DNA of 24,000 bases, from positions 7,932 to 31,931 of the forward strand of contig JAACFF010000016.1 of the NCBI GenBank assembly GCA_009937635.1, in the 5' to 3' direction. Source of the DNA: Chloroflexota bacterium. GTDB taxonomy: Bacteria; Chloroflexota; Anaerolineae; Promineifilales; Promineifilaceae. A model generated the notes under the pieces. The model saw nothing but the letters and a program-made list of their open reading frames with translations. It was not told the origin of the DNA and made no database searches. This document shows, piece after piece, positions 2,582 through 22,430 of the stretch. The translations under genes and the position numbers were made by a program. How positions within the stretch are numbered: position 1 is the stretch's first letter; every line of letters begins with the position of its first letter.

Positions 2582-3100
2582 TCATCCAAGATTCAGGCGC
2601 AAAATGTCGTTCATCCGAAATCCAAAATCAAATGATCCGATTACCAATCCGATATTGATCGCCGCATTCACTATTGCGGGCAGGCGTCGTTGGTTGAAAA
2701 CTTTTTGCAGATGCTGGCTGGCTACTGCCAGTGCGCCAAATGACAAGAAAGTAAACGGAAGCGGGAAAGAGTAGCGGCCAGTGATTAGTGAAAAGAGAAG
2801 ATTGTGTAGCACTCCATTCACAAAGAAAACCACGACTGCTGCCAGCTCCCTTTTCCGCCTCCCACCCAGAAGTAGATAAAATCGAAAACAGAAGTAGCTG
2901 ATCCCTGGATTCCAAACCCGCCAGAAATTGTGGAAACCTGGTTCTAGCCAGCAGGTCAGAAATCCGCGCTTTACGAAAAACCAGTCGTTAACATGATCTT
3001 CAAACCCGCGAAGCCTTAGATATCCCGTGTAGTCAACAATAAACAACTTATGGGAGGTGCTTAAGCGGGTTTTTGTATCATCGAGAAGGCTCCGACCCAT
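2582..3100 (-). CDS. MBOAT_2-like (wax-synthase-type) membrane acyltransferase domain protein, unusually short
   Basis: 172 aa and hydrophobic. It has the FWRVWN motif followed by the conserved His context VNGVLHNLLF, typical of the MBOAT_2 domain. Only about 60 aa precede the motif, so it may be N-terminally truncated. It lies 24 nt downstream of the hydrolase gene. Confidence 0.6.
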   Translation of the reverse strand: MGRSLLDDTKTRLSTSHKLFIVDYTGYLRLRGFEDHVNDWFFVKRGFLTCWLEPGFHNFWRVWNPGISYFCFRFYLLLGGRRKRELAAVVVFFVNGVLHNLLFSLITGRYSFPLPFTFLSFGALAVASQHLQKVFNQRRLPAIVNAAINIGLVIGSFDFGFRMNDILRLNLG

Positions 3101-7200: not shown

Positions 7201-7416
7201 ATGCCAATGAACAGCTATCGCAATATCTTGCTGATTGAAGATGATCCGGCCGTCGCGCGCAGTTTGATTGATGGGCTAGAACAAGCCAACTTTCAGGTTA
7301 CGTGGCAAGAAAACGGCCGTGACGGCATCGCCTATGCCCACGATCGCCGCCCTCACCTGATTACCCTCGACGTGTGCCTGCCGAAGTCCTCTCCAACGCT
7401 GACGTCTGCGTGCTAG
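7201..7416 (+). pseudogene. Response-regulator receiver domain fragment (N-terminal ~60 aa only)
   Basis: NILLIEDDPAVARSLIDGLEQANFQVTWQENGRDGIAYAHDRRPHLITLDVCLP is a receiver domain running up to the phospho-Asp strand. Similarity is then lost (KSSPTLTSAC, stop). There is no alpha4-beta5 region and no output domain. Confidence 0.7.
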
Positions 7417-8138
7417 GACAGAAAACGGCCGGGCAGTTATTTTGCGGTGACAATCTGCTGCAAGAAATCGTGTGGGTCAACCAGCGTAAATGCCTGGTCA
7501 TTGGCGTACTGACTGAGTTGGAAGTGACCAATCCCGCTCTACGCAACCAGCTTCGCCCCAACGAAGCCTTCTATTTGCCCATCAGTACCGCGATCAATAA
7601 CCTGTTCGATGAGCCGTCGTCGGTGCAAATCACGGCCCACGTCACAGATGAAAGCCGTATGGTCGAGGCACGCTGCCAGATCGTCGACTATCTGCGCTTG
7701 CGTCATGCCATTGGCAAAGATGAAGTTGGCCAATGGGAGGATGACATTGAATTGACGGCACGCCAGGACATATTGGGGGCCCAGCAGCAGGCAGCCCGCA
7801 CCTTCTCATTTCTGCTGGCGGCAATGGCTGCGGTCTCCTTATTGGTAGGCGGGATTGGCATTCTGAACGTGATGCTGGTTAGCGTCGTCGAGCGCACGCG
7901 CGAGATTGGGGTGCTCCTGGCCGTCGGCGCCCGGTCGCAGGACATAGTCACCCAGTTTTCGCTGGAGGCAATACTCATCAGTGGCTTTGGTGGCCTGCTG
8001 GGCGTTGCCGTAGGCGTATTGAGCATTCCGTTGGTGGTCAATTTCAACCAGGGCGTGGCGCTGCTGGCGCCGGGTAGCATCCCCCTGGCTTTGGGCATTG
8101 CTCCGCCCAGCGTGTTGTCAGCCACTAGAAATCGTTGA
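7374..8138 (+). pseudogene. MacB/FtsX-type ABC transporter permease, 3' fragment with decayed C-terminus
   Basis: It starts inside the periplasmic domain (ADVCVLGQKTAGQLF) and lacks TM1. The FtsX core is SLLVGGIGILNVMLVSVVERTREIGVLLAVGARSQDIV. The expected C-terminal YPA..AA.L.P.EAL signature appears only in other frames (SAQRVVSH; LNTPAEAIEM near 8166-8195), implying frameshifts. No ATPase gene is adjacent. Confidence 0.75.
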
Positions 8139-8209: not shown

Positions 8210-10252
8210 CTATTGCGTACCGACAGAAGAGGCTACCAGATTTCTGACCTGGGCTAGCAAATCATTTTGTTTAGCATTACCCTTATCAATAATATATTGG
8301 ACACCGCCGTCAAGCTGCTGGCGATCTTCGTCGCTTAGATCCTTGGCCGTAATGACGATGATCGGGATCGAGCGATTCTCCTCATTCTGACGTAAAGCCA
8401 GCAAGAATTCAAAACCGTCCATCACCGGCATCATCAAATCTAGCGTAATCAAATCCGGTTTGCGCTCTGATACACGCTGCAGGCCAATAGCGCCGTTTTC
8501 TGCTTCCGATACATCCCAACCATTTTCCTCAAATGTGCGGCGTTGCAGCGTACGTGTTGGCTCGTCATCTTCAACCACCAGGACATGTCTCGTGCCCTTG
8601 GGGAGGGTGTATTGGCGGACCGTCTGCAAGAGTAATTTGCGATCAATCGGCTTGGTCAACGACTCTACTGCACCAAGCGTGTAGCCCATATTTTTGTCGG
8701 CTACTATCGACGCCATGATTACCGGGATGTTCTCCAACTCGGGTTCCGCTTTAAGCTTTTGTAACACAGTCCAGCCATCCATGTCAGGCATCATAATGTC
8801 CAGCGTAATCAGCGATGGCTTCAGCTTACGCGCCAGATCCAATCCTTCTGCTCCGCTGCCAGCTGTCACCACGGCATGGCCATCCAACTTCAGTGTTCTT
8901 GAAATAAGATCGCGGGCAATAGGATCATCATCAATGATCAATATAGAAGATTTCGCTGAAGTGATAGAATCAGCGTCCGCAGCAACATCGATTGATGCGG
9001 CCTTAGCGGCTTCCAGCGCATCCACCTTAGCCGGCAACTCTATGGTGAAAGTCGATCCTTCACCCACCTCACTTGTCGCTGTGAGATCACCACCCATCAT
9101 TCGGCAGAACTTCTGACTAATGGGCAGACCCAGACCTGTTCCTCCAAAGTTTCGCGTTGTCGAATCGTCAGCCTGGGAGAAAGCTTCAAACACGTGGTCT
9201 ATCTTGTCATCGGGAATGCCTATACCCTCATCGCTAACGCTGATAAAGATCTTATCGCCGTCATCGTGCTTCTCTCGCATTGCAGCGACAGTGATCGTAC
9301 CCTCATTTGTGAATTTGGCTGCGTTTGAAAGTAAATTGAAAAGAACTTGCCGGGTCTTTGTCAGATCAGCCCGTATGGTTCCCAGATCTTCGGGAAAGTC
9401 AGTGGCCAGAAGATTGTTGTTTTTGTCGATAAGTGGTTGAACTGTTGACATTGCCTCAGACAGCATTTGCCGGAGATCGAAGCGTTCTAGATAGATGTCC
9501 ATTCTACCGGCTTCGATCTTCGAGAGGTCAAGGATGTCGTTGATCAAACCCAGGAGATGCCGGCCAGCGGCATTGATCTTTTCAAGGTCTGGGACCATCT
9601 CATCATAGCCATCGTCCTCGGCGTCTTCGGCCAACATTTCGCTGTAGCCGATGATGGCATTCATTGGCGTGCGCAATTCATGGCTCATATTGGCCAGGAA
9701 AGAACTCTTCGCCTGATTAGCATTTTTTGCTTCCTGCGTGGCCTGCTCAAGCTGTGCCGTTCGCTGCCGGACAACTTCTTCTAAATCGGCTTGATATTCT
9801 TGCAGCGCACGATTTTTTGATTGGATCTCGGCCATCAGCTCATCACGCCCTTTCCGGGCCATCATCGCCTTTAGTCTGGCGATGATTTCTGTGGTAGGTG
9901 GCTGCACGATGTTCAGATATTTTTGTGCACGTACAGTTTGTTGCGCATTGCCGGTGGGCAAAAAGCGGACATCGTCAAAGAATTGGGTCAATAATTGGGT
10001 CTCAGACACGTCCGCCATCTCGCCAAATTCGAACACGAGTGCGTTCTGTCCGACTTTAGTCGATAAACCGACAACAATCGTGGTCGATTGAGCGGTCCGC
10101 TGCAACGCCCGGCTAATCGTCGAAGCAATCGTTGCCAACCGCGTGGCCAAAATTCCATCGCCGGAAATGGTTTCAGCGATCACCTGAATCTTCTTACGGA
10201 CGTCGGTGATTGAGCTTTGTTCGCTGATATTGATCGTGCCAATGGGTATCAT
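8210..10252 (-). CDS. Hybrid sensor histidine kinase (N-terminal degenerate RsbT-like domain, coiled coil, HisKA, HATPase, REC, REC)
   Basis: 680 aa. H-box is [24 protein letters not shown]-box is [11 protein letters not shown], and G-boxes are VSDEGIGIP and [11 protein letters not shown]. The two receivers are ILIIDDDP...[13 protein letters not shown] and VLVVEDDE...[13 protein letters not shown]. Its ATG abuts the TAG of the upstream PP2C gene. Confidence 0.9.
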
Positions 10253-10867
10253 CTACTTGCGATACCGCACGACAAGACAGGTGGCATCATCATATTGTTT
10301 GCCATAATTGCGTACGATTTTTCTGGCAACAGATCTCGAGCTTTCGTAAATGAGTTGTGGATACTCACTTAATTCGAAACGGTCTTTAATGCCATCACTA
10401 TAAAATGTGAGCACTTCTGTTTCATCCAGCTGAAGTTTTTGTTCTCTAGGGCTTCGCATGCGGCTGCCGACAACGCCCTCAGTCGAAGGTAGGCGGATTG
10501 AGCGAGTGCCGAATTTGCGTATGACAGTATTGCCAACCCCAGTGTAACGCAATTTCCCGCTCGCTAGATCAAGGCTGGCTAATCCGACTGCCGCGCCAAT
10601 GGAACCTCGGATCGCCTCATGCAAGCCTAAAAGGGTGCTAACTACATCTTCTTGCCATTCTGCATCTAAAAAAGTTCGAATTTGCACAGCTATGTCATTA
10701 GCATTAGGTCCATGACCGAGAGCATCGACAATCGCCAAGAACACGGACCCATTACGGGAGCGAACGATGGCGTCATCTCCGCTAACCAACTCGCCAAAGC
10801 ATGGACGGGCAACGGAAGCGTACTCCAGCTCGTCTACATTGCCAAAACTTTCATCAAGCATAACCAT
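10253..10867 (-). CDS. rsbX: RsbX-like PP2C/SpoIIE-family serine phosphatase
   Basis: 204-aa single-domain protein with GDDAIV...LAIVDALGHGPNA and a C-terminal YSDGI...DD(A)T pattern, typical of RsbX-type feedback phosphatases. It sits directly after the RsbT gene. An AGGAA SD precedes the ATG. Confidence 0.8.
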   Translation of the reverse strand: MVMLDESFGNVDELEYASVARPCFGELVSGDDAIVRSRNGSVFLAIVDALGHGPNANDIAVQIRTFLDAEWQEDVVSTLLGLHEAIRGSIGAAVGLASLDLASGKLRYTGVGNTVIRKFGTRSIRLPSTEGVVGSRMRSPREQKLQLDETEVLTFYSDGIKDRFELSEYPQLIYESSRSVARKIVRNYGKQYDDATCLVVRYRK

Positions 10868-10892
10868 TTCCTATTGTTGTTCTCAAATTCCC

Positions 10893-11303
10893 TTATCGGC
10901 GACGCCATTTTCTGATCTGCACCGTCGTGCCCTGCCCCTCAGCGGAGTGAATCTCGAATTCATCCATCAAGCGCTTGACACCTGGAAGGCCAAGCCCCAA
11001 TGTGCCGCTAGAACTATAATTATCGGCTACGGCTTGTTTAATATCGGCAATGCCTGGTCCTTTGTCCTGGGCGACGATTTCAATACCTATTTGGTAGCCC
11101 TTCTCGATCCGATCGATGATTATCTCGCCCTTGTCTGCGTACTTGATGATATTGCGAGCTAACTCAGAAACGGCCGTTGCAATCATCTGCGTTTCGACTT
11201 CGGCAAATTCTATCTCCTTAGCAAACCTACGGGCTTCCAGTAAAGCTCGGGCAACATCTTGTTCCTGAATAATCGGAACACGTCTCTTATCTGATGACAT
11301 CAA
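10893..11303 (-). CDS. rsbT: RsbT-type serine/threonine protein kinase (HATPase_c_2, stressosome switch kinase)
   Basis: About 135 aa. N-box is IATAVSELARNIIKYA, G1 is DKGPGI and G2 is GLGLPGVKRLMDEF. Size and position after RsbS match RsbT. The track start is a TTG at 11303 and the ATG at 11300 is the more likely start. Confidence 0.9.
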   Translation of the reverse strand: MMSSDKRRVPIIQEQDVARALLEARRFAKEIEFAEVETQMIATAVSELARNIIKYADKGEIIIDRIEKGYQIGIEIVAQDKGPGIADIKQAVADNYSSSGTLGLGLPGVKRLMDEFEIHSAEGQGTTVQIRKWRRR

Positions 11304-11333
11304 CCTTTTCCGTAAGTTCGCCCAGATTCAATT

Positions 11334-11717
11334 TTACTTTTGATCCTCAACGAGACCAAATGCGTCGTCCAGATTAAATGCGGCCAGGATGCCCTCTACA
11401 TCGGCATTTAGCTCGATTAATGCTGATACGACGCCCGGTCGCATGCCGGCTACTATCGATCGCGCGCCCATCAGAGAAACCATCGACATTGTATGCCTGA
11501 GCGCCTCAAATTCCTCCAAATCTAATATTTGGAGCCCGGATAAATCGAAAATGACTGCTTGAGCGCCCGACCGCTGTAAGAACTCAAGCAAATCCGCCCG
11601 AAAACGGCGAAGTACGTCATAGGTCAAATCAACTTGAATTGAAGCTACAATGCAATTGCGCGAAAGCTGCAGAGGAATTCGAGCTGAGTTTTCCGCGCCC
11701 AACAAATCAAGAGACAA
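11334..11717 (-). CDS. rsbS: RsbS-type single STAS-domain protein (stressosome scaffold/antagonist)
   Basis: 127 aa that aligns without gaps to B. subtilis RsbS as I recall it (RIPLQLSRNCIVASIQVDL... vs KIPILKLYNCLLVSIQWEL...; LMGARSIVAGMRPGVVSALIELN vs [23 protein letters not shown]). TTG start with GGAGA 6 nt upstream. It overlaps the rsbR stop by 11 nt. Confidence 0.9.
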   Translation of the reverse strand: MSLDLLGAENSARIPLQLSRNCIVASIQVDLTYDVLRRFRADLLEFLQRSGAQAVIFDLSGLQILDLEEFEALRHTMSMVSLMGARSIVAGMRPGVVSALIELNADVEGILAAFNLDDAFGLVEDQK

Positions 11718-12606
11718 GCTTTATCTCCATACCAAGACGATTGTAAGCATCAGATAAGGCATCTTTCATGGTGGCAGTCGTCTTAACCGTGCCAACCTCG
11801 ATACCCAGTTCGACAATGGTCTGGGCAATGGCTGGGGATACGCCGGAAATAGTACAGGAACAGCCCATTAAACGAGTAGCTTTGGTAATCTTTATCAAAT
11901 GGTTAGCAACGGCCGTGTCGACCACCGCAACACCACTGATATCCATGATGAACACCCGCGCCTGGGTCTCGGCGATTTTTTCCAGCGCCGCGTTCATGAT
12001 ATCCTGAGCCCGTTTAGAATCAACAATCCCGACGATCGGCAGCAATAAAATGCCACTCCAAATTTGGGTGACCGGTGTCGACATCTCCATCAGCGATCTG
12101 CTTTGCATGGCCATGGTCTCGTTAACGTGCTGCGAGTAGGTTTCGACGACCACGGCCGTGTCCATGTGCACCTGCTTCATCAGGGCTTTCAAGGTGTCAG
12201 AGGGACCATCCCCGGATCTGTTTGCATCAACAACTTCCGTGAATAATCCCAGAAAAACATTCATGGCCGCAAAATAAGTGCTGAGTGGTAGACCGATCCG
12301 CGCATGCGTGGTTCCTACCCGTTGTCGGCTGCTCATGTACTCATCGTCAATTTCGGCCCGAAAGAATTGGTGCCAATAATTAGTAACCAATCCCTCGACA
12401 CGCTTCTGAACCTGATCATCAGAGAAATATTCGTCATACTCCGGTTGGGTTCTGAGCCAGTCGTAGAAATTATGGACATGTTCCGATATCCTATCAATTA
12501 CAGCGCCAGCCAAATCTCGGATCAAATTGAGGTCATCTTGGGAAATCTGATATAGTTCACGTAATGCTTCCGGATCCAGCCCGGAACCCCTTCTTTCTTC
12601 AATCAT
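11707..12606 (-). CDS. rsbR: RsbR-type stressosome sensor with N-terminal globin-coupled-sensor (protoglobin) domain
   Basis: The N-terminal globin-coupled sensor signature is VHNFYDWL...VTNYWHQFF...RVGTTHARIGLPLSTYF (putative proximal His). The C-terminal RsbR STAS is STPVTQIWSGILLLPIVGIVDSKRAQ...MDISGVAVVDTAVANH...GVSPAIAQTIVELG. I place the start at ATG 12606 (AGGAGGA SD 8 nt upstream) rather than the track's TTG at 12639. Confidence 0.85.
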   Translation of the reverse strand: MIEERRGSGLDPEALRELYQISQDDLNLIRDLAGAVIDRISEHVHNFYDWLRTQPEYDEYFSDDQVQKRVEGLVTNYWHQFFRAEIDDEYMSSRQRVGTTHARIGLPLSTYFAAMNVFLGLFTEVVDANRSGDGPSDTLKALMKQVHMDTAVVVETYSQHVNETMAMQSRSLMEMSTPVTQIWSGILLLPIVGIVDSKRAQDIMNAALEKIAETQARVFIMDISGVAVVDTAVANHLIKITKATRLMGCSCTISGVSPAIAQTIVELGIEVGTVKTTATMKDALSDAYNRLGMEIKLVS

Positions 12607-12668
12607 TAGGATGCTTCCTCCTATCTTTTTCCGCTGCAAATTTCAGCCATTTTCGTCAAAAGACCTTT

Positions 12669-14531
12669 CTACCGGGTCTGCAAGTGGTTCATGGCGAAAT
12701 TAACACCATTTTGCAGGGTTCGTTCGGTGCTAATCCCTTCAAGATGTAAATTGAGTTCAGTAAGTTCCACCGCAACTTGGGGTTGCAGACCGGTAATCAC
12801 AACCTTGGCACCAAGTAAATTCGCCTTTTTGGCAACGCGTATCAAGCTCATTGCCACTGCTTCATCGAGACTCGGAACCCCGGTCAGATCCAGGATGGCC
12901 ACTCTCGCCGATGAGGTATAAAGTCCCTCTGTCAGTAGTTCGCTGGCGTTGCCCAGACGGCGTTCGTCAAGCTCGCCAACTAAGGGCATGACGACAATAT
13001 CATCAGTCAAGGGTATCATCGGTGTTGACAGGGCGTCGATAGCCGCGTTCTGCTGGCGAATAAACTGCTTGACGGACTGGCGCATTGAATCAAAGCTTCT
13101 GGATAAATCGCCAATTTCATCTTTGCGGTCCGTATTGATCGTGATGTCCAAATTGCCGTCCGCCAATTCGCTCGCATTTCCTGCCAGCGTCTCCAAGGGA
13201 CCGGTGATTGACCTGGAAAAGATAATAGCCAGGATCACAATGAGGATCAGTAAAATGATCGAACTGATAAGCAATGTTCGGCCCAATGTTTGGGCAGGGG
13301 CAAAGGCTTCAGCTTCATCAATTTCACTCATGATGACCCAGTTCACGCCTGGTATCTCGAGCGGCTTATATGATGACAGGACTGGGATACCGCGATAGTC
13401 GGGGAAAATGGCCGTTCCTGTTTCACCGGCCTGTGCGGCGCGCGTGCCATCGGTCATGACCTCTTGTAAGCCAATGCTGCTGTTCAAGTTACGAATTTGA
13501 TCGATGGTCTCTTGCTCCGTACCGGTTTCTTGCAGGAGGTCAAAATACTCATCGCTATCCTCAATAAGAAAGCGCGATTGATTGCGTATTGTAAGGTCAT
13601 CACCTACCAGGTAGGTTTCTCCCGAATCACCAAGGCCCATCTGGTTCCACGCCTGGCGGTTGGTCATAATGTCATTAATGCGATCGACGGGCATCTGAAA
13701 TAGCAACACGCCGATCTTTTCGCCGTCATCAAAGATGGGTGAGGCGATGAAGGCGGCCGGGGCATTATAAGAAGGGGCATAAGGATCAAAATCGACCATG
13801 TAAACAAATTCACCTTTGCCTGCGTCCAATGCTGACCTGAATGCTTCAGCGAAATTCGTATCGCTATAAGGCCCGTCGAGCAGCGAAGTGCCATAATCGA
13901 CTTCTTTGAAGACTGTATAGACGATATCACCTTCCGTATTGGCCAAGAAGATGTCGTAATATCCAAAAGTATCCAGGAAGTTGCGGATGATGGGATGATA
14001 AAGCTCGTGTGAATCACTATAACGGCTGCCATCGCCAGGATTATCCAAAAGATGCTTGGAGCCTACCTCAAAGGGATTAGAGGCAATATAAAGATCCTGC
14101 AATAGTTGCGTTGTGGTCTCTTCTGGCCAAAACTCGTCTACGCTGACGCTACTCTGTAAATTGGGAATAAGCCGCGAGAGATACTCCTCCGAATAATAAC
14201 CCCGAAGCTTGTTGGCCGCCTCGCCCACTTCTTCTTGAGAGCGATCCAGCTCGGAGTCGATTTCTCGATAGCTATCGTCAAAGGCCTTGGTCGCTTCAAC
14301 GATCATGCGATCTTCAGAAAGCGTCACGACCTGACCGCTTATTTGCTGGAAGTAGTCTTCAATCTGGTTGGCCTTCATTTCGCGCACGGCCGTCAGTTTG
14401 TTAAGTGATTCTGCTTGCAAGGCGTTCTTGGCGATGGTAAAGCCGATGAAGCCGGTTACACCTACAGCTACAATTGCGATGGCAATGAAGGCTATTAGCA
14501 TTTTCGTCCGGATTCTTAGATTATTGAGCAT
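12669..14531 (-). CDS. Transmembrane dCache-like / HAMP / STAS receptor (membrane-anchored RsbR paralogue)
   Basis: 620 aa. TM1 is about aa 11-33. The ~380-aa extracytoplasmic region has Cache-type motifs (KLTAVREMKANQIEDYF, YDIFLANTEGDIVYT, GVLLFQMP, YRGIPVLSSY). TM2 is about aa 419-438 and HAMP about 439-492 (PLETLAGNASELADGNLD...DEIGDLSRSFDSM). The RsbR-like STAS is about aa 500-615 (STPMIPLTDDIVVMPLVGELDERR...ILDLTGVPSLDEAVA...ITGLQPQVAVELTELN). Confidence 0.85.
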   Translation of the reverse strand: MLNNLRIRTKMLIAFIAIAIVAVGVTGFIGFTIAKNALQAESLNKLTAVREMKANQIEDYFQQISGQVVTLSEDRMIVEATKAFDDSYREIDSELDRSQEEVGEAANKLRGYYSEEYLSRLIPNLQSSVSVDEFWPEETTTQLLQDLYIASNPFEVGSKHLLDNPGDGSRYSDSHELYHPIIRNFLDTFGYYDIFLANTEGDIVYTVFKEVDYGTSLLDGPYSDTNFAEAFRSALDAGKGEFVYMVDFDPYAPSYNAPAAFIASPIFDDGEKIGVLLFQMPVDRINDIMTNRQAWNQMGLGDSGETYLVGDDLTIRNQSRFLIEDSDEYFDLLQETGTEQETIDQIRNLNSSIGLQEVMTDGTRAAQAGETGTAIFPDYRGIPVLSSYKPLEIPGVNWVIMSEIDEAEAFAPAQTLGRTLLISSIILLILIVILAIIFSRSITGPLETLAGNASELADGNLDITINTDRKDEIGDLSRSFDSMRQSVKQFIRQQNAAIDALSTPMIPLTDDIVVMPLVGELDERRLGNASELLTEGLYTSSARVAILDLTGVPSLDEAVAMSLIRVAKKANLLGAKVVITGLQPQVAVELTELNLHLEGISTERTLQNGVNFAMNHLQTR

Positions 14532-14663
14532 ACTATTTGGAAATTCCTTGTGACAGATCTGGACGCCAATTGAACGGTAGCACTCGCATTTTGGCTTAAC
14601 AAGTATATCACCTGCCGCTTGAAATGACTAATATCATAGTCTGGAATATGGGGCAATCGCATA

Positions 14664-15030
14664 CTAACCTGACAGCACCTTAACAAGATAATCTTCATTC
14701 CAAGCCGCTTGAAGTCTCTTGGCTTTGATGCCACCTTTAGCTGCCTTCTCCTGTTTAAGCAGATTAAGCGCCATATGACACATGACCGCCAGGTTTTGGT
14801 CCGTATTCCCTGGCGGACACGACTGTCATCTTCACGAAAAGCCACATCCAAGACCCAGTGCAGGCTGTTTTCGATTTCCCAATGACAGTGTCTTGGTCCG
14901 TGTCTGTAACAACAGATGCACTCCTCGCTTTGGTGGTATTCCGTTACGTTATAACAAGTGTGCGGTTGTTGAAGATGCCCCAACAACAAGTTCAAGCGGA
15001 TGAAATCAAAGTCAAAGAGGGTGGGTATTT
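14664..15030 (-). mobile_element. ISAs1-family (H-repeat-associated) transposase 3' remnant, frameshifted
   Basis: HWEIENSLHWVLDVAFREDDSRVRQG is the conserved C-terminal ISAs1 transposase motif. After a 1-nt frameshift near 14805-14812 the family C-terminus continues in another frame (NTDQNLAVMCHMALNLLKQEKAAKGGIKAKRLQAAWNEDYLVKVLSG, stop at 14664-14666). The N-terminal two-thirds of the transposase is absent. Confidence 0.7.
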
Positions 15031-15540
15031 GTGGTTAGCCATGGCCACCTGGATCTCACCCATGGCATCGCCCATACTCAGTTCCATAGCCAGCTTGCGT
15101 GCCTCGTCTGGCTCGGTCGTTACCTGCCCATGGTAGAGGTCTGGGGCCAGGACGACGTAGCCTTCTTCGGCAAAGCGCCGCGAGACGTCTTTGATGTGCT
15201 CGTTGAGGCCCCACCATTCCTGGATGACGATGATCGCCGGCTGTGCCTTTTGGCCAGGCGCATGGGCCAGGTAGCCCATCAGCTCTGCCCCATCAGGCCC
15301 GGCATAGGTGACAATACCTGTTTCCAGTTCGCCGCTTGCACTGAGACCGGGTTCGGGAGGTGGTTGCGTCGAATCGACGACGGGAGGTGGTGTGCGATCG
15401 GTTACTGGGGTACAGGCAGCGAGCAGCATGTTAGCTGCTGCGCTGCCCAAAACGGCCGTGGCTCTGATGAGAAATTCACGCCGGTCGACACTTCCCACCT
15501 GCCGTTCGCGCACCAGTTCCATGAGTTCAATTCTGTTCAT
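14992..15540 (-). pseudogene. Dienelactone hydrolase-family protein, Tat-signal lipoprotein type, C-terminally truncated by the IS remnant
   Basis: ATG at 15540 with an AAGGAG SD. It has a twin-arginine signal SVDRREFLIRATAVLGSAAANMLLAAC and a DLH N-terminal half, IIVIQEWWGLNEHIKDVSRRFAEEGYVVLAPDLYHG. Similarity to the intact paralogue (20134..20967) ends near nt 15037, before the nucleophile GFCFGG region, and unrelated sequence runs to the stop. Confidence 0.7.
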
Positions 15541-15910
15541 TTGTTGTCTCCTTTTCACAAGCTTGTGTCCCCCCTGGCAAACGGTGCCGGTTAGTAGCCA
15601 CCCATTGATAGACTGCGCGTTCAAACTGCTTGATGCCGGGTACATGATAAAGCGTAGCAAATGGCCGTGCCCACCAAATATAGCGCAGTGCGCTATTTAC
15701 TGCTGCTGCGCCACCGGAAAGCCCACTATCATCAACAAACCATGCTTGGGTTATTCCATCACGCTCTGTAAGGCCAAGTTTTGCCATTTGCTCAGGGATA
15801 GATTGCCATGGAGCAACAGAAATACGGAAATGTGACCACGTCTGCACGAGACGAGCCGTTTTCACTCAAAAACCACAATCGCCATCAATTATGAGTAGAG
15901 GCTTTCTCAT
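15527..15910 (-). CDS. DCC-family (DUF393) thiol-disulfide oxidoreductase with in-frame TGA at the second Cys of CxxC (candidate selenoprotein, or a nonsense pseudogene)
   Basis: ATG 15908-15910 has an AGGAG SD 8 nt upstream. It translates MRKPLLIIDGDCGF-TGA(15866-15868)-VKTARLVQTW... in the same frame as track ORF 15527..15865. The downstream part has DCC-family features (FVDDSG..GGAAAVNSALRYI, YQWVATNRHRLPG). The family motif DGxCxxC is here DGDCGF[TGA]. Confidence 0.55.
15832..15865 (-). promoter_or_regulatory. SECIS-like hairpin immediately 3' of the in-frame UGA
   Basis: mRNA after the UGA reads GUGA AAACGGCU CGUCU CGUGC AGACG UGG UCAC. The upper stem is CGUCU/AGACG (15849-15853 with 15839-15843) and the apical loop CGUGC contains GU about 19-20 nt after the UGA. 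The lower stem is GUGA/UCAC, or alternatively GGCU/GGUC with a bulged U. The geometry resembles the E. coli fdhF SECIS as I recall it. Confidence 0.4.
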
Positions 15911-15982
15911 GTTTATTACTCCTGTGTTATGGTTCTATACCTATAATACTAGAAACAATAGTAAAATAGCCACCAGGCCCCG

Positions 15983-16597
15983 CTACGCAAACGGCTGGCG
16001 GATAACCGTCTTCAAATTCTCCGGCGCGGCGCGGCGGGGATCGCTGAGATAAATCTCGTGGTGTTTGCCACGCGGCCGGCAGCCGATTTCGTTGATGTAC
16101 TGGTGAATCCTGGCGATAGTGGGCGCTTCGTCGGCGTAGGGGCCGATGTGCATAATCTGCGCTGACGCCCCTTCATGCAAGCGCTCCAGGCGTACTTTGT
16201 CCAATGCTGGCGGGTTTTTCTTTTTAGCCGTCTGCGCCAGCGCTCTCTCTACCATTTCTTGACTGACTGGTTCCGGCTGCAGGATCATCATCGTCCACAA
16301 CCAATCGGCCTTCTTCTCCACGCTGAATTGGCTCATATCCTCCACCCACCACAAGCCTTGCAGAGGCATGACCACGTAATCGAGCCCCACTGTCCCCTTT
16401 TTCATCATAAACTTCAGAGCATAAGCCACCGCGTATAAGGTCTCCACCGCATCCTTATATTCCTGAGCTATGTTAGGATCGCCACGGCCGTCTATCATCA
16501 AGTAGTTCAGCGGCGGCACATCAACACGCACCACCAGCTTCGCCCCTGGCCGGTACAATGCTTTCCATTCTTTCTTTAAATCGATCTTTTTCATCAC
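15983..16597 (-). CDS. GyrI-like small-molecule-binding domain protein
   Basis: About 203 aa. DLKKEWKALYRPG...PPLNYLMIDGRGDPN...YALKFMMKK...PLQGLWW...IMHIGPYADE...GKHHEIYLSDPRRAAPENLKTVIRQP matches the stand-alone GyrI-like family. The track start is GTG 16597 and the ATG at 16594 is equally plausible. Confidence 0.85.
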   Translation of the reverse strand: MMKKIDLKKEWKALYRPGAKLVVRVDVPPLNYLMIDGRGDPNIAQEYKDAVETLYAVAYALKFMMKKGTVGLDYVVMPLQGLWWVEDMSQFSVEKKADWLWTMMILQPEPVSQEMVERALAQTAKKKNPPALDKVRLERLHEGASAQIMHIGPYADEAPTIARIHQYINEIGCRPRGKHHEIYLSDPRRAAPENLKTVIRQPFA

Positions 16598-20133: not shown

Positions 20134-20967
20134 CTACTCGCTGGCCATGAGGTTCTTCTCAAGGAAAGCCAGGGTTTGCTGCCATGCCTCTCTCGCAGGG
20201 CCCGGCTGATTGTAGTTCTCTTCATTCAAGAAGGCATGGCCTACGCCAGGGTAGATAGTGATCTCATTCTCGATGTCCAGAGAATTAAGAGCTGCTTCAA
20301 ATTCCAGCACTTCAGCGGGAAAGATGGTGTTGTCTTCTTCGGCAAAGATGCCGAGAACCGGCTGCGCTTCGGTCAACGGCCGCAGCAAATCAGGTTCGGT
20401 GACCACAGCGCCATAGTACATGATTGTCAGCGCCAGATTCTCAGATTGGCGCAGGCCTAGCTGCAAGGAATGGCCCCCGCCAAAGCAGAAGCCCATGGAA
20501 GCGACACGCTGCGTGTCAACAGAATCGAGGCTGCGCAGGTAGGCCAGGCCGCTGTCGACATCTGTCTCCACTTGCTCTTGCGGCGTTGTGATGCGCAGCC
20601 AGAGCGCACGAGGAAAGGCGGCCGTTACATTGCCACGGTAGGCGTCGGGCGCGAAGACGACGTATCCCTCCTTGGCCAGGGCATCGGCTAATAGGGTGAT
20701 GCCCTCGTTTAATCCCCACCATTCGTGGATCAACAAGACCGCCGGGTGGGGCCCGGGTCCCTGCGGTGTGGCCAGATAGCCATATAGCTTTTGACCATCG
20801 ATATTTTCGTATTCTATGTTGGCAACGTCGGCCGTGTCGCTGCCAAATAGGCTGTCAAAGATGATCGCGCCGGCAAAAAGGGCGATAAGGAGCAGAAAGA
20901 GGGCAAGAAGCGCAAGTACGATGCGCTTCAGCCAGGTCATGAATCTTGACGAATTGCCTTCGGCCAT
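20134..20967 (-). CDS. Dienelactone hydrolase-family protein, membrane-anchored, intact
   Basis: I start it at ATG 20967 (GGAGGA SD 8 nt upstream). The track's 363-aa ORF extends 5' over the decarboxylase gene's 3' end with no hydrolase similarity. It has a TM anchor IVLALLALFLLLIALFAGAII and the DLH motifs LLIHEWWGLNE, nucleophile GFCFGGG, and GVGHAF. Confidence 0.85.
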   Translation of the reverse strand: MAEGNSSRFMTWLKRIVLALLALFLLLIALFAGAIIFDSLFGSDTADVANIEYENIDGQKLYGYLATPQGPGPHPAVLLIHEWWGLNEGITLLADALAKEGYVVFAPDAYRGNVTAAFPRALWLRITTPQEQVETDVDSGLAYLRSLDSVDTQRVASMGFCFGGGHSLQLGLRQSENLALTIMYYGAVVTEPDLLRPLTEAQPVLGIFAEEDNTIFPAEVLEFEAALNSLDIENEITIYPGVGHAFLNEENYNQPGPAREAWQQTLAFLEKNLMASE

Positions 20968-21026
20968 GTGAATATCCTCCAATTGCAGATCGATTCTTTG
21001 TCGTGGTGAGACAAGCTGGACCAATC

Positions 21027-22430
21027 TTAGTACATTGCGTCTTGCAGCGCCTGCCAACAAATTTCGGCATCCTGCATTTCTGTCTGCCAGTTGGAAAAGG
21101 CGGCGCGCATGGCGGGGATGCCTTTGTACTGGGTGGGAGTGAGGTAAACACGGCCGTCGTCGCGCAGCCGCGCCAGGATCTGCTGCACCTGGATCATCGT
21201 TGGTTCGCCGGCCAAAGTGAAACAAGTGACATTAAGATTGACCGGGGCCAGCAAGCGGAATTGTACTGAATCAGCAGCTTGCTGCCCCAGCCATTCAGCC
21301 TGGGCGCAGTTGCGTTCAACGATATCCTGGTAGCCGGTACGGCCGTAAGCCATTAACGTCATCCATGCCGGTAAGGCGCGAAAACGGCGTGAGTTTTGTG
21401 GCGTCCAATGGACGAGGCCGGGTGTTTCGTCCGCACTGGTGGGGCCAAGATAAACGGCCGCATTACGGAAGACGGCGAGCTGTAGATCGGGGTGGCGCGA
21501 GAACTGCATCGCCGAATCGTAAGGCACGTTAAGCCATTTGTGGGCGTCAATGGTGATGGAATCGGCCGTTTCCATGCCTGCAACCAATTGCGTGTAGCGA
21601 GGCGAGCAGGCAGCGAAACCGCCAAAAGCGCCATCCACGTGTAACCAGAAGTTAAAATTGTTTTTCAGACGGGAGATCGCCTGCAGATCGTCAAAATCAA
21701 CCGTGTTCACCGTGCCCGCATTGCCCACGACCACACATGGCTGGCCCTCAAGAGCCTGCAATTGTTGCGCCAGTGCGGTCACATCTACCGCCTCCCGGCC
21801 GGGCAATGTGGGGATTGGCATCACCTGCCTGCCCATGCCCAGCATGGCCAGGGCTTTATAAATGCTGGAATGGGGCGTCGCCGAAAGAACGGGCAGTGGT
21901 TCCAGGCTATATATCCCCTCTTCTGCGGCATCGATGCCATGTTGCAAAGCTGCCCATTGTCGCGCCTGGGCCAGCCCCACGAGGTTGCTAACAGTGGCTC
22001 CGCTGACAAAGGTGCCCCAAAACGTTGAGGGCAGGCCAAACATCTGGCGTAGGAGATGGATGGTCTCTTGCTCTACCTGGGGTGCGATGGAATCTTCATT
22101 GGCGGCGACATTCTGATCGTAGACGGCCGCCAGCCAGTCGCCCAACAGCGCGGCAGGGGTGGCGCCTCCGGTCACGAAGCCCAGGTATCGTGGACCGGCG
22201 CTGCCAGAGAGACCTGGACCATATCGGGTTGTGAACTGCGCCAGGGCTTCTATGGTGCCTGCGCCATTTGCGGGTAACTTGAGGTGCCAGGCATTTTCAA
22301 AGTGCCTGGTACCTGGGTTCATCGCAACTGGCTGGGTGGGCAGGTTGTCGAGAAAGGCAATGGCCTCGCGAACGGCCGTTTCTAGTAGCTGCTTTCTATT
22401 TTGTTGATCATTGCGCAGGGTCTGGTCCAT
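21027..22430 (-). CDS. Group II pyridoxal-phosphate-dependent decarboxylase
   Basis: The PLP-lysine motif is [17 protein letters not shown], with upstream [14 protein letters not shown] and [18 protein letters not shown] start it at ATG 22430, 28 nt after the cupin stop. The track start at 22499 would overlap the cupin gene. Confidence 0.85.

Follow-up and report, generated by a model that had tools for sequence, protein, structure and literature searches.

Proteins of the DCC1-like (DUF393) family, PF04134, which include B. subtilis YuxK and Arabidopsis DCC1, share a D-x-D-C-x-x-C motif together with an invariant Tyr, Arg, Pro and C-terminal Cys, and a 2026 preprint describes proteins that join a DCC1-like domain to a vitamin-K-carboxylase-like HTTM domain. 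The catalogued CxxU selenoproteins (SelW-like PF10262, AhpD-like and GrdA; PMC13188914 Table 1) carry selenocysteine (Sec) at the C-terminal position of a CxxC-type motif, have Cys homologues, and are supported by a conserved UGA, the alignment of that codon with Cys and a bacterial Sec insertion sequence (bSECIS). Sec decoding is documented in Chloroflexi (PMC1794560, PMC5389517). The gene described here lies in a 24,000-nt stretch of a Chloroflexota bacterium (contig JAACFF010000016.1, positions 7,932 to 31,931; hereafter the window). It shares the full-length domain, the motif and the invariant residues with the Cys-form DCC1-like proteins, from which it differs in having UGA in place of the second motif Cys and, behind the UGA, a SECIS-like hairpin that is absent from the Cys forms. 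With the catalogued CxxU selenoproteins it shares the position of Sec, the existence of Cys homologues and the same kind of evidence; it differs in belonging to another protein family, and there is no PF04134, DCC, DUF393 or YuxK entry among the 119 families and subfamilies of prokaryotic selenoproteins catalogued in May 2026 (PMC13188914). On sequence evidence, we consider it probable (roughly 0.85) that this is a genuine selenoprotein gene, in which UGA would be decoded as Sec to yield a full-length, 127-residue DCC1-like thiol oxidoreductase with the motif Cys12-Gly-Phe-Sec15.

The gene is read from the minus strand and comprises the following features, where L087 denotes the nearest relative found.

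15919..15923, minus strand: Shine-Dalgarno sequence AGGAG, 8 nt before the ATG, read directly from the sequence, with identical bases in L087
15527..15910, minus strand: DCC1-like (DUF393) coding sequence of 127 residues with proposed Sec15, ATG at 15910-15908 and TGA stop at 15529-15527
15875..15877, minus strand: TGT codon of Cys12, which opens the C-G-F-U redox motif and is invariant in 109 aligned family members
15866..15868, minus strand: in-frame TGA proposed to encode Sec15, at the alignment column that holds the second CxxC Cys in Cys-form homologues
15834..15857, minus strand: SECIS-like hairpin, core stem 15853-15849 with 15843-15839, loop CGUGC at 15848-15844
15557..15559, minus strand: TGT codon of Cys118 near the C-terminus, an invariant column in alignments A1, A4 and A5

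From the ATG, 14 codons (MRKPLLIIDGDCGF) lead to the TGA at 15868-15866 and the GTG at 15865-15863, and past the in-frame TGA the frame is open for 112 further codons up to the stop at 15529-15527. With TGA read as Cys, the product matches the Pfam DCC1-like profile (PF04134) over positions 3-112 of 113 with E=2e-13, scoring 51.8 bits against a gathering cutoff of 27.8. The initial annotation, made from the letters alone, had described this layout from the AGGAG to the 112-codon continuation and had called the product DCC/DUF393-like; both descriptions hold. The redox motif runs D9-G-D11-C12-G13-F14-U15, which places the in-frame TGA at the second Cys position of D-x-D-C-x-x-C. The D9, D11, C12, G13, F14 and C15 columns are invariant across the 109 family sequences, and the window protein retains all ten family-invariant residues (D9, D11, C12, G13, F14, residue 15, Y101, R108, P112 and C118). 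Cys118 is a third cysteine, located in a C-terminal P-G-G-T-x-x-C beyond the Pfam domain match and at a low-confidence position in the AlphaFold (AF2) model. A promoter and terminator scan around the DCC gene gave no signal exceeding shuffled expectation.

The TGA is conserved well beyond the window. A scan of species representatives, in which each GTDB species was entered once, yielded 24 close loci with 52-68% protein identity. All belong to Chloroflexota (Ardenticatenaceae, Promineifilaceae or 'Candidatus Leptofilum' type), and the Sec15 codon is TGA in 23 of them and TGT in the other. Four distinct metagenome homologues (57-60% identity) also carry TGA there, and L087, a 648-nt metagenome contig with ~96% DNA and ~94% protein identity, has the hairpin as well as the TGA and its adjacent GTG. 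The orthologues are accordingly not all Cys forms, a point on which the initial annotation had made its proposal depend. In alignment A2 all 27 Sec-form rows have TGA at this codon, as does L087; carriers among the relatives include NZ_OZ244997.1, NZ_OZ245005.1, JACKBQ010000001.1 and JAWKPA010000012.1, and GCA_020634195.1 is an example of an assembly with a Cys form. A protein search yielded five full-length close homologues with DGDCGFC and nine others that had been called from scattered internal starts past the motif, and the upstream DNA of four of these truncated calls reads ...PLLIYDGDCGF-TGA-EKTARLVQTW... in one frame in each case.

The same column holds TGC or TGT in ~49 other homologues, with Cys codons in close clade members (P0002-P0006 and L024), in all Actinomycetota homologues and in some of the Thermoflexales. 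The window protein is up to 61% identical to the Cys-form proteins P0002-P0006. TGA also serves as the true stop codon of the window gene and of 18 of the 28 family genes that were examined, and a general reassignment of UGA was therefore ruled out.

Downstream of the UGA the mRNA can form a hairpin whose core, CGUCU-CGUGC-AGACG, begins 12 nt past the UGA; in the window copy GGCU (15857-15854) additionally pairs with GGUC (15837-15834), with U15838 bulged. The five core pairs are present in all 27 Sec-form sequences. The third of them (alignment columns 48-58) covaries, being U-A in 17 sequences, G-U in 8, A-U in 1 and U-G in 1, because the third base of an Arg codon and the first base of a Thr/Ser/Ala codon change together; a C-G variant of this pair comes from the metagenome scan described below, among the matches listed. 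The loop-closing pair (51-55) covaries as well (G-C 13, C-G 11, U-G 1), a synonymous Leu position shifting along with a Gln/Glu codon. Paired cells make up 91.6% overall; sliding the 3' partner by 1-3 columns reduces this to 25-44%, and none of 500 shuffles matched the observed covariation score. Two synonymous sites within the stem, alignment columns 57 and 60, hold an invariant G.

Cys-form members of the clade (L024, L088, L090 and L092) have between 0 and 4 of the five core pairs, and their minimum free energies (MFE) range from -2.5 to -6.3 kcal/mol, compared with -7.3 to -13.8 for the Sec forms. Folding z-scores of the sequence after the codon separate 31 TGA genes from 49 genes with TGY (TGC or TGT; Mann-Whitney p=2.5e-6), these sequences being phylogenetically non-independent. 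On these comparative grounds, the hairpin is a feature of the RNA and not a by-product of the protein sequence. The initial annotation had drawn it with an additional outer helix, GUGA/UCAC. Only part of that drawing survives: the core is conserved with compensatory changes at 48-58 and 51-55, whereas the outer helix occurs solely in the window and L087, is absent from the other 26 relatives and was dropped as a conserved feature.

The published bSECIS model (PMC13188914 Fig. 2A) describes a loop of 3-9 nt, an upper stem of 4-16 bp, a G at loop position 1 or 2, a UGA-to-loop distance of 16-37 nt and an MFE at or below -7.5 kcal/mol. The window hairpin falls within every one of these bounds, with a 5-nt loop (CGUGC), G at position 2, a 5-bp core plus 4 bp, a spacing of 17 nt and an energy of -8.8 kcal/mol; the energy bound is passed by 26 of the 27 family members. 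It also resembles the bSECIS model of Zhang and Gladyshev (E. coli fdhF type) as a hairpin within the coding sequence, directly after the UGA and 17 nt from it to the loop, and the family consensus G-GUG-C fits N1-G-U-N-N2 with a loop of 3-5 nt and a stem of 5-11 bp. Its sequence, however, is unrelated to that of the fdhF-type SECIS.

Selection has acted on both sides of the TGA. Over the 10 codons before it, mean pairwise differences per site are 0.091, 0.036 and 0.452 at codon positions 1, 2 and 3 in a 27-sequence DNA alignment, and this third-position bias indicates that the stretch is translated in the ATG frame. The ratio of non-synonymous to synonymous substitution rates (dN/dS; Nei-Gojobori) has a whole-gene median of 0.18. 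Together with the retention of every family-invariant residue, these values describe a gene that is not decaying; decay was an outcome that, by the initial annotation, would have refuted its proposal. Its proposal that the TGA is read as Sec with the aid of a downstream SECIS is supported by the conservation of UGA, the covarying hairpin, the pairing of Cys and Sec homologues and purifying selection.

TGA at the equivalent codon recurs in other DCC lineages. The Thermoflexales-type genes L043, L048 and L054 carry it together with a different hairpin, which has a 5-bp stem and a CGUGNN loop at an equal distance. Metagenome contigs were also scanned for the exact pattern DGDCGF-TGA, which gave at least 120 matching stretches, and 80 loci were analysed. 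Among these 80 are at least 13 more genes that encode homologues of the window protein and carry TGA at the Sec15 codon, including Thermoflexales-type L127, L156 and L167 and a divergent member with 34% identity (L133), and at least five contigs (L135, L150, L163, L166 and L172) that belong to a separate DCC1-like subfamily with TGA at the second Cys and the pattern WDGDCGF-U-RR..AW.RRHD...PYQ..PSPPMT. The separate subfamily and L133 have strong hairpins of 7-10 bp with a G-first triloop, 16-17 nt past the UGA; in the subfamily itself the stems measure 7-9 bp and lie ~17 nt downstream. Membership of PF04134 was confirmed for representatives of the other TGA lineages, and across these lineages the differing hairpins sit ~16-18 nt downstream. 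A Cys-form gene of Thermoflexales type, L031 (TGC), retains a hairpin much like that of the Sec-form L043; this could be the trace of a recent switch from Sec to Cys or merely an effect of high G+C (0.80).

Other explanations of the in-frame TGA were weighed against these observations. A change from TGY to TGA takes a single substitution, and the adjoining dienelactone hydrolase (DLH) gene is truncated beside an ISAs1 remnant in a window that holds further gene fragments, all of which would suit a nonsense mutation in a Cys-type DCC gene and a decaying locus. However, the TGA is shared by 27 other sequences (52-68% protein identity; ~94% for L087) whose frames are intact on both sides, the upstream differences fall mostly at third positions, and a nonsense lesion is not expected to be conserved over species-level genomes. 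A pseudogene is already contradicted at the level of the family, and we regard it as highly improbable. Translation might instead start at GTG 15865, as in the open reading frame (ORF) track supplied with the window, to give a 112-residue protein without the CxxC. The GTG does follow directly on the TGA in the window and L087, and public gene callers give N-truncated products for the DCC family. Nevertheless, the codon is GAA or GAG in the other 26 Sec-form genes, which indicates that re-initiation at the window GTG is not how the family is expressed; the starts chosen by gene callers scatter over differing internal Met and Val positions; and purifying selection acts on the 14 upstream codons, which come with the Shine-Dalgarno sequence and ATG and specify the catalytic motif. 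Such a start retains hardly any probability. Read-through of UGA by hairpin-stimulated insertion of near-cognate Cys or Trp, or by some other recoding, is also very unlikely. It draws on the negative searches for Sec machinery in the window and related loci; against it stand the classic Sec/Cys pattern of a UGA at the redox Cys of a CxxC with Cys-form homologues, a geometry matching SelB-type bSECIS elements (17-nt spacing, a small loop that opens with G-U), the convergence of independent lineages on one geometry with different sequences, and the known capacity of Chloroflexi for Sec decoding (PMC1794560, PMC5389517).

Several results nonetheless weigh against the selenoprotein reading, at least for the window copy. 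ARAGORN found no tRNA-Sec in the 24-kb window or in 35 related loci, although it may overlook tRNA-Sec of the 8/4 type, which has been reported for Chloroflexi. No sel genes emerged when the window ORFs were annotated with Pfam, and tblastn with E. coli SelD and SelA, used as probes only, found no match in 1.59 Mb of related loci. Rfam covariance models applied to 15400-16000 at E<=10 returned no SECIS family, only chance-level matches; this lowers only the case for membership of an existing Rfam family and not that for SECIS function. The fold of the window sequence taken alone is ordinary (z=+0.76 over 71 nt; -8.8 kcal/mol for the 28-nt hairpin), so the case for the hairpin rests on comparison with relatives. 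Within the family the window hairpin is among the weakest, with C-C at the loop-closing pair and U-U at the pair below the core, and the MFE of the L087 hairpin is only -4.2 kcal/mol compared with -8.8 in the window. The dN/dS between the window and L087 is 0.40 (8 synonymous and 11 non-synonymous changes), the top value of 310 pairs, and the locus contains an insertion sequence remnant and several gene fragments. A family of true selenoproteins in which the window copy is on its way to losing function, as constraint relaxes and its SECIS weakens, would account for the high dN/dS and the two lost flanking pairs, and also for the replacement of the conserved Glu after Sec by Val and of Tyr8 by Ile, for the disrupted neighbouring gene and for the missing menaquinone context (men and mqn genes) of the relatives. 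Yet the frame, start codon, Shine-Dalgarno sequence, TGA, five core pairs and ten invariant residues are all intact, the dN/dS is still below 1, though estimated from 19 changes only, and an alternative 4-bp stem extension offsets the lost pairs to give -8.8 kcal/mol. We consider a decaying window copy unlikely.

If the window gene is a selenoprotein gene, as we favor, the UGA at 15868-15866 would be read as selenocysteine under the direction of the hairpin within the coding sequence, with its 5-bp core 12 nt past the UGA and its GU-containing apical loop. The hairpin would bring SelB with Sec-tRNA(Sec) to the ribosome, by analogy with other genes for bacterial selenoproteins. The resulting C-x-x-U would lie at the start of the first helix of a predicted thioredoxin-like fold, and the protein may cycle between a selenol/thiol and a selenenylsulfide form. 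An AF2 model of the Cys homologue P0002 (predicted local distance difference test score 87.4, predicted template modelling score 0.79) places the CxxC between strand 1 and helix 1. Foldseek matches of this model to the PDB are nearly all of thioredoxin fold or close to it, yet they are weak (best E=0.02, template modelling scores 0.3-0.45). A sequence search of the PDB with the family profile found no solved family member, only marginal thioredoxin-fold matches (E=0.09 and 0.49).

The gene directly downstream overlaps the DCC gene, and an insertion sequence remnant follows it.

14992..15540, minus strand: DLH fragment, covering Pfam DLH profile positions 3-77 of 217, with a 14-nt overlap with the DCC gene
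14516-14995: ISAs1 transposase remnant, covering NF033564 positions 271-303 of 314

The DLH gene has the orientation of the DCC gene and ends after ~180 residues where it abuts the ISAs1 remnant, and a full-length DLH paralogue lies at 20134-21225. The initial annotation had noted both the truncated, overlapping neighbor and a locus rich in pseudogenes. The profile match bears out the former; the latter agrees with apparent gene fragments at 25-1321, 2582-3100 and 7374-8138, which comprise a WD40 gene split in two ORFs, a C-terminal MBOAT piece (positions 200-327 of 337) and a MacB/FtsX permease without its N-terminal part. Similarity between L087 (397-648) and the window (15290-15540) ends within ~15 nt of the DCC gene end. 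The break falls close to the DCC stop codon, a short way into the overlapping downstream gene, which in L087 is an unrelated lipoprotein-like ORF in place of DLH. Further along the minus strand, positions 8210-14531 hold a run of partner-switching and signalling genes: a hybrid histidine kinase with two receiver domains, a SpoIIE phosphatase, an HATPase_c_2 anti-sigma-type kinase, a STAS protein, a protoglobin-STAS fusion and a dCache-HAMP-STAS sensor.

In related loci the DCC gene, whether of Sec or Cys form, recurs beside genes of menaquinone (vitamin K2) biosynthesis. The loci with a menH-like gene upstream are as follows.

Upstream of the DCC gene, same strand, in 16 related loci: menH-like gene (L002, L007, L008, L011-L014, L018, L021-L023, L025-L027, L029 and L046)

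In four of these loci it lies 19-81 nt before the DCC gene. Four menH copies were checked with NCBIfam (L002, L007, L014 and L026), and each matched TIGR03695 above cutoff; the copy in L014 is a menE-menH fusion, and those in L026 and L007 are solitary, with no full men operon. Among Cys forms, L092 has AMP-binding and alpha/beta hydrolase genes upstream, the arrangement expected of menE plus menH, and L090 has as neighbor a UbiA-type prenyltransferase, a family that includes MenA. In L001 and L006 the DCC gene stands amid mqnE, mqnC and a VitK2_biosynth gene. The genes surrounding the window DCC copy include no such men or mqn context. Tentatively, and with more doubt than confidence, we suggest that Sec-containing DCC1-like (DUF393) proteins may form an uncatalogued bacterial selenoprotein family, in which several lineages have their own SECIS and whose function may be tied to menaquinone metabolism.

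NCBIfam holds no model, for a selenoprotein or otherwise, that matches the window protein, and in the full-text literature, with subscription papers outside our reach, we found no paper pairing selenoproteins or Sec with DUF393 or DCC. The protein looks like a new Sec counterpart within a family of Cys oxidoreductases, a well-known pattern, and it would add one family to the bacterial selenoproteome. Public gene calls for the DCC family are systematically truncated at the N-terminus, so that the catalytic CxxU motif is lost, and a dedicated rule or model is needed in annotation pipelines. In this poorly characterized oxidoreductase family, Sec and Cys forms make up a natural pair, which marks residue 15 as catalytically important, and the recurrent menH, menE, menA-like and mqn neighbors offer a functional lead for DUF393 proteins. 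If the link to menaquinone is true, the CxxU protein would act as a selenol/thiol oxidoreductase linked to quinones.

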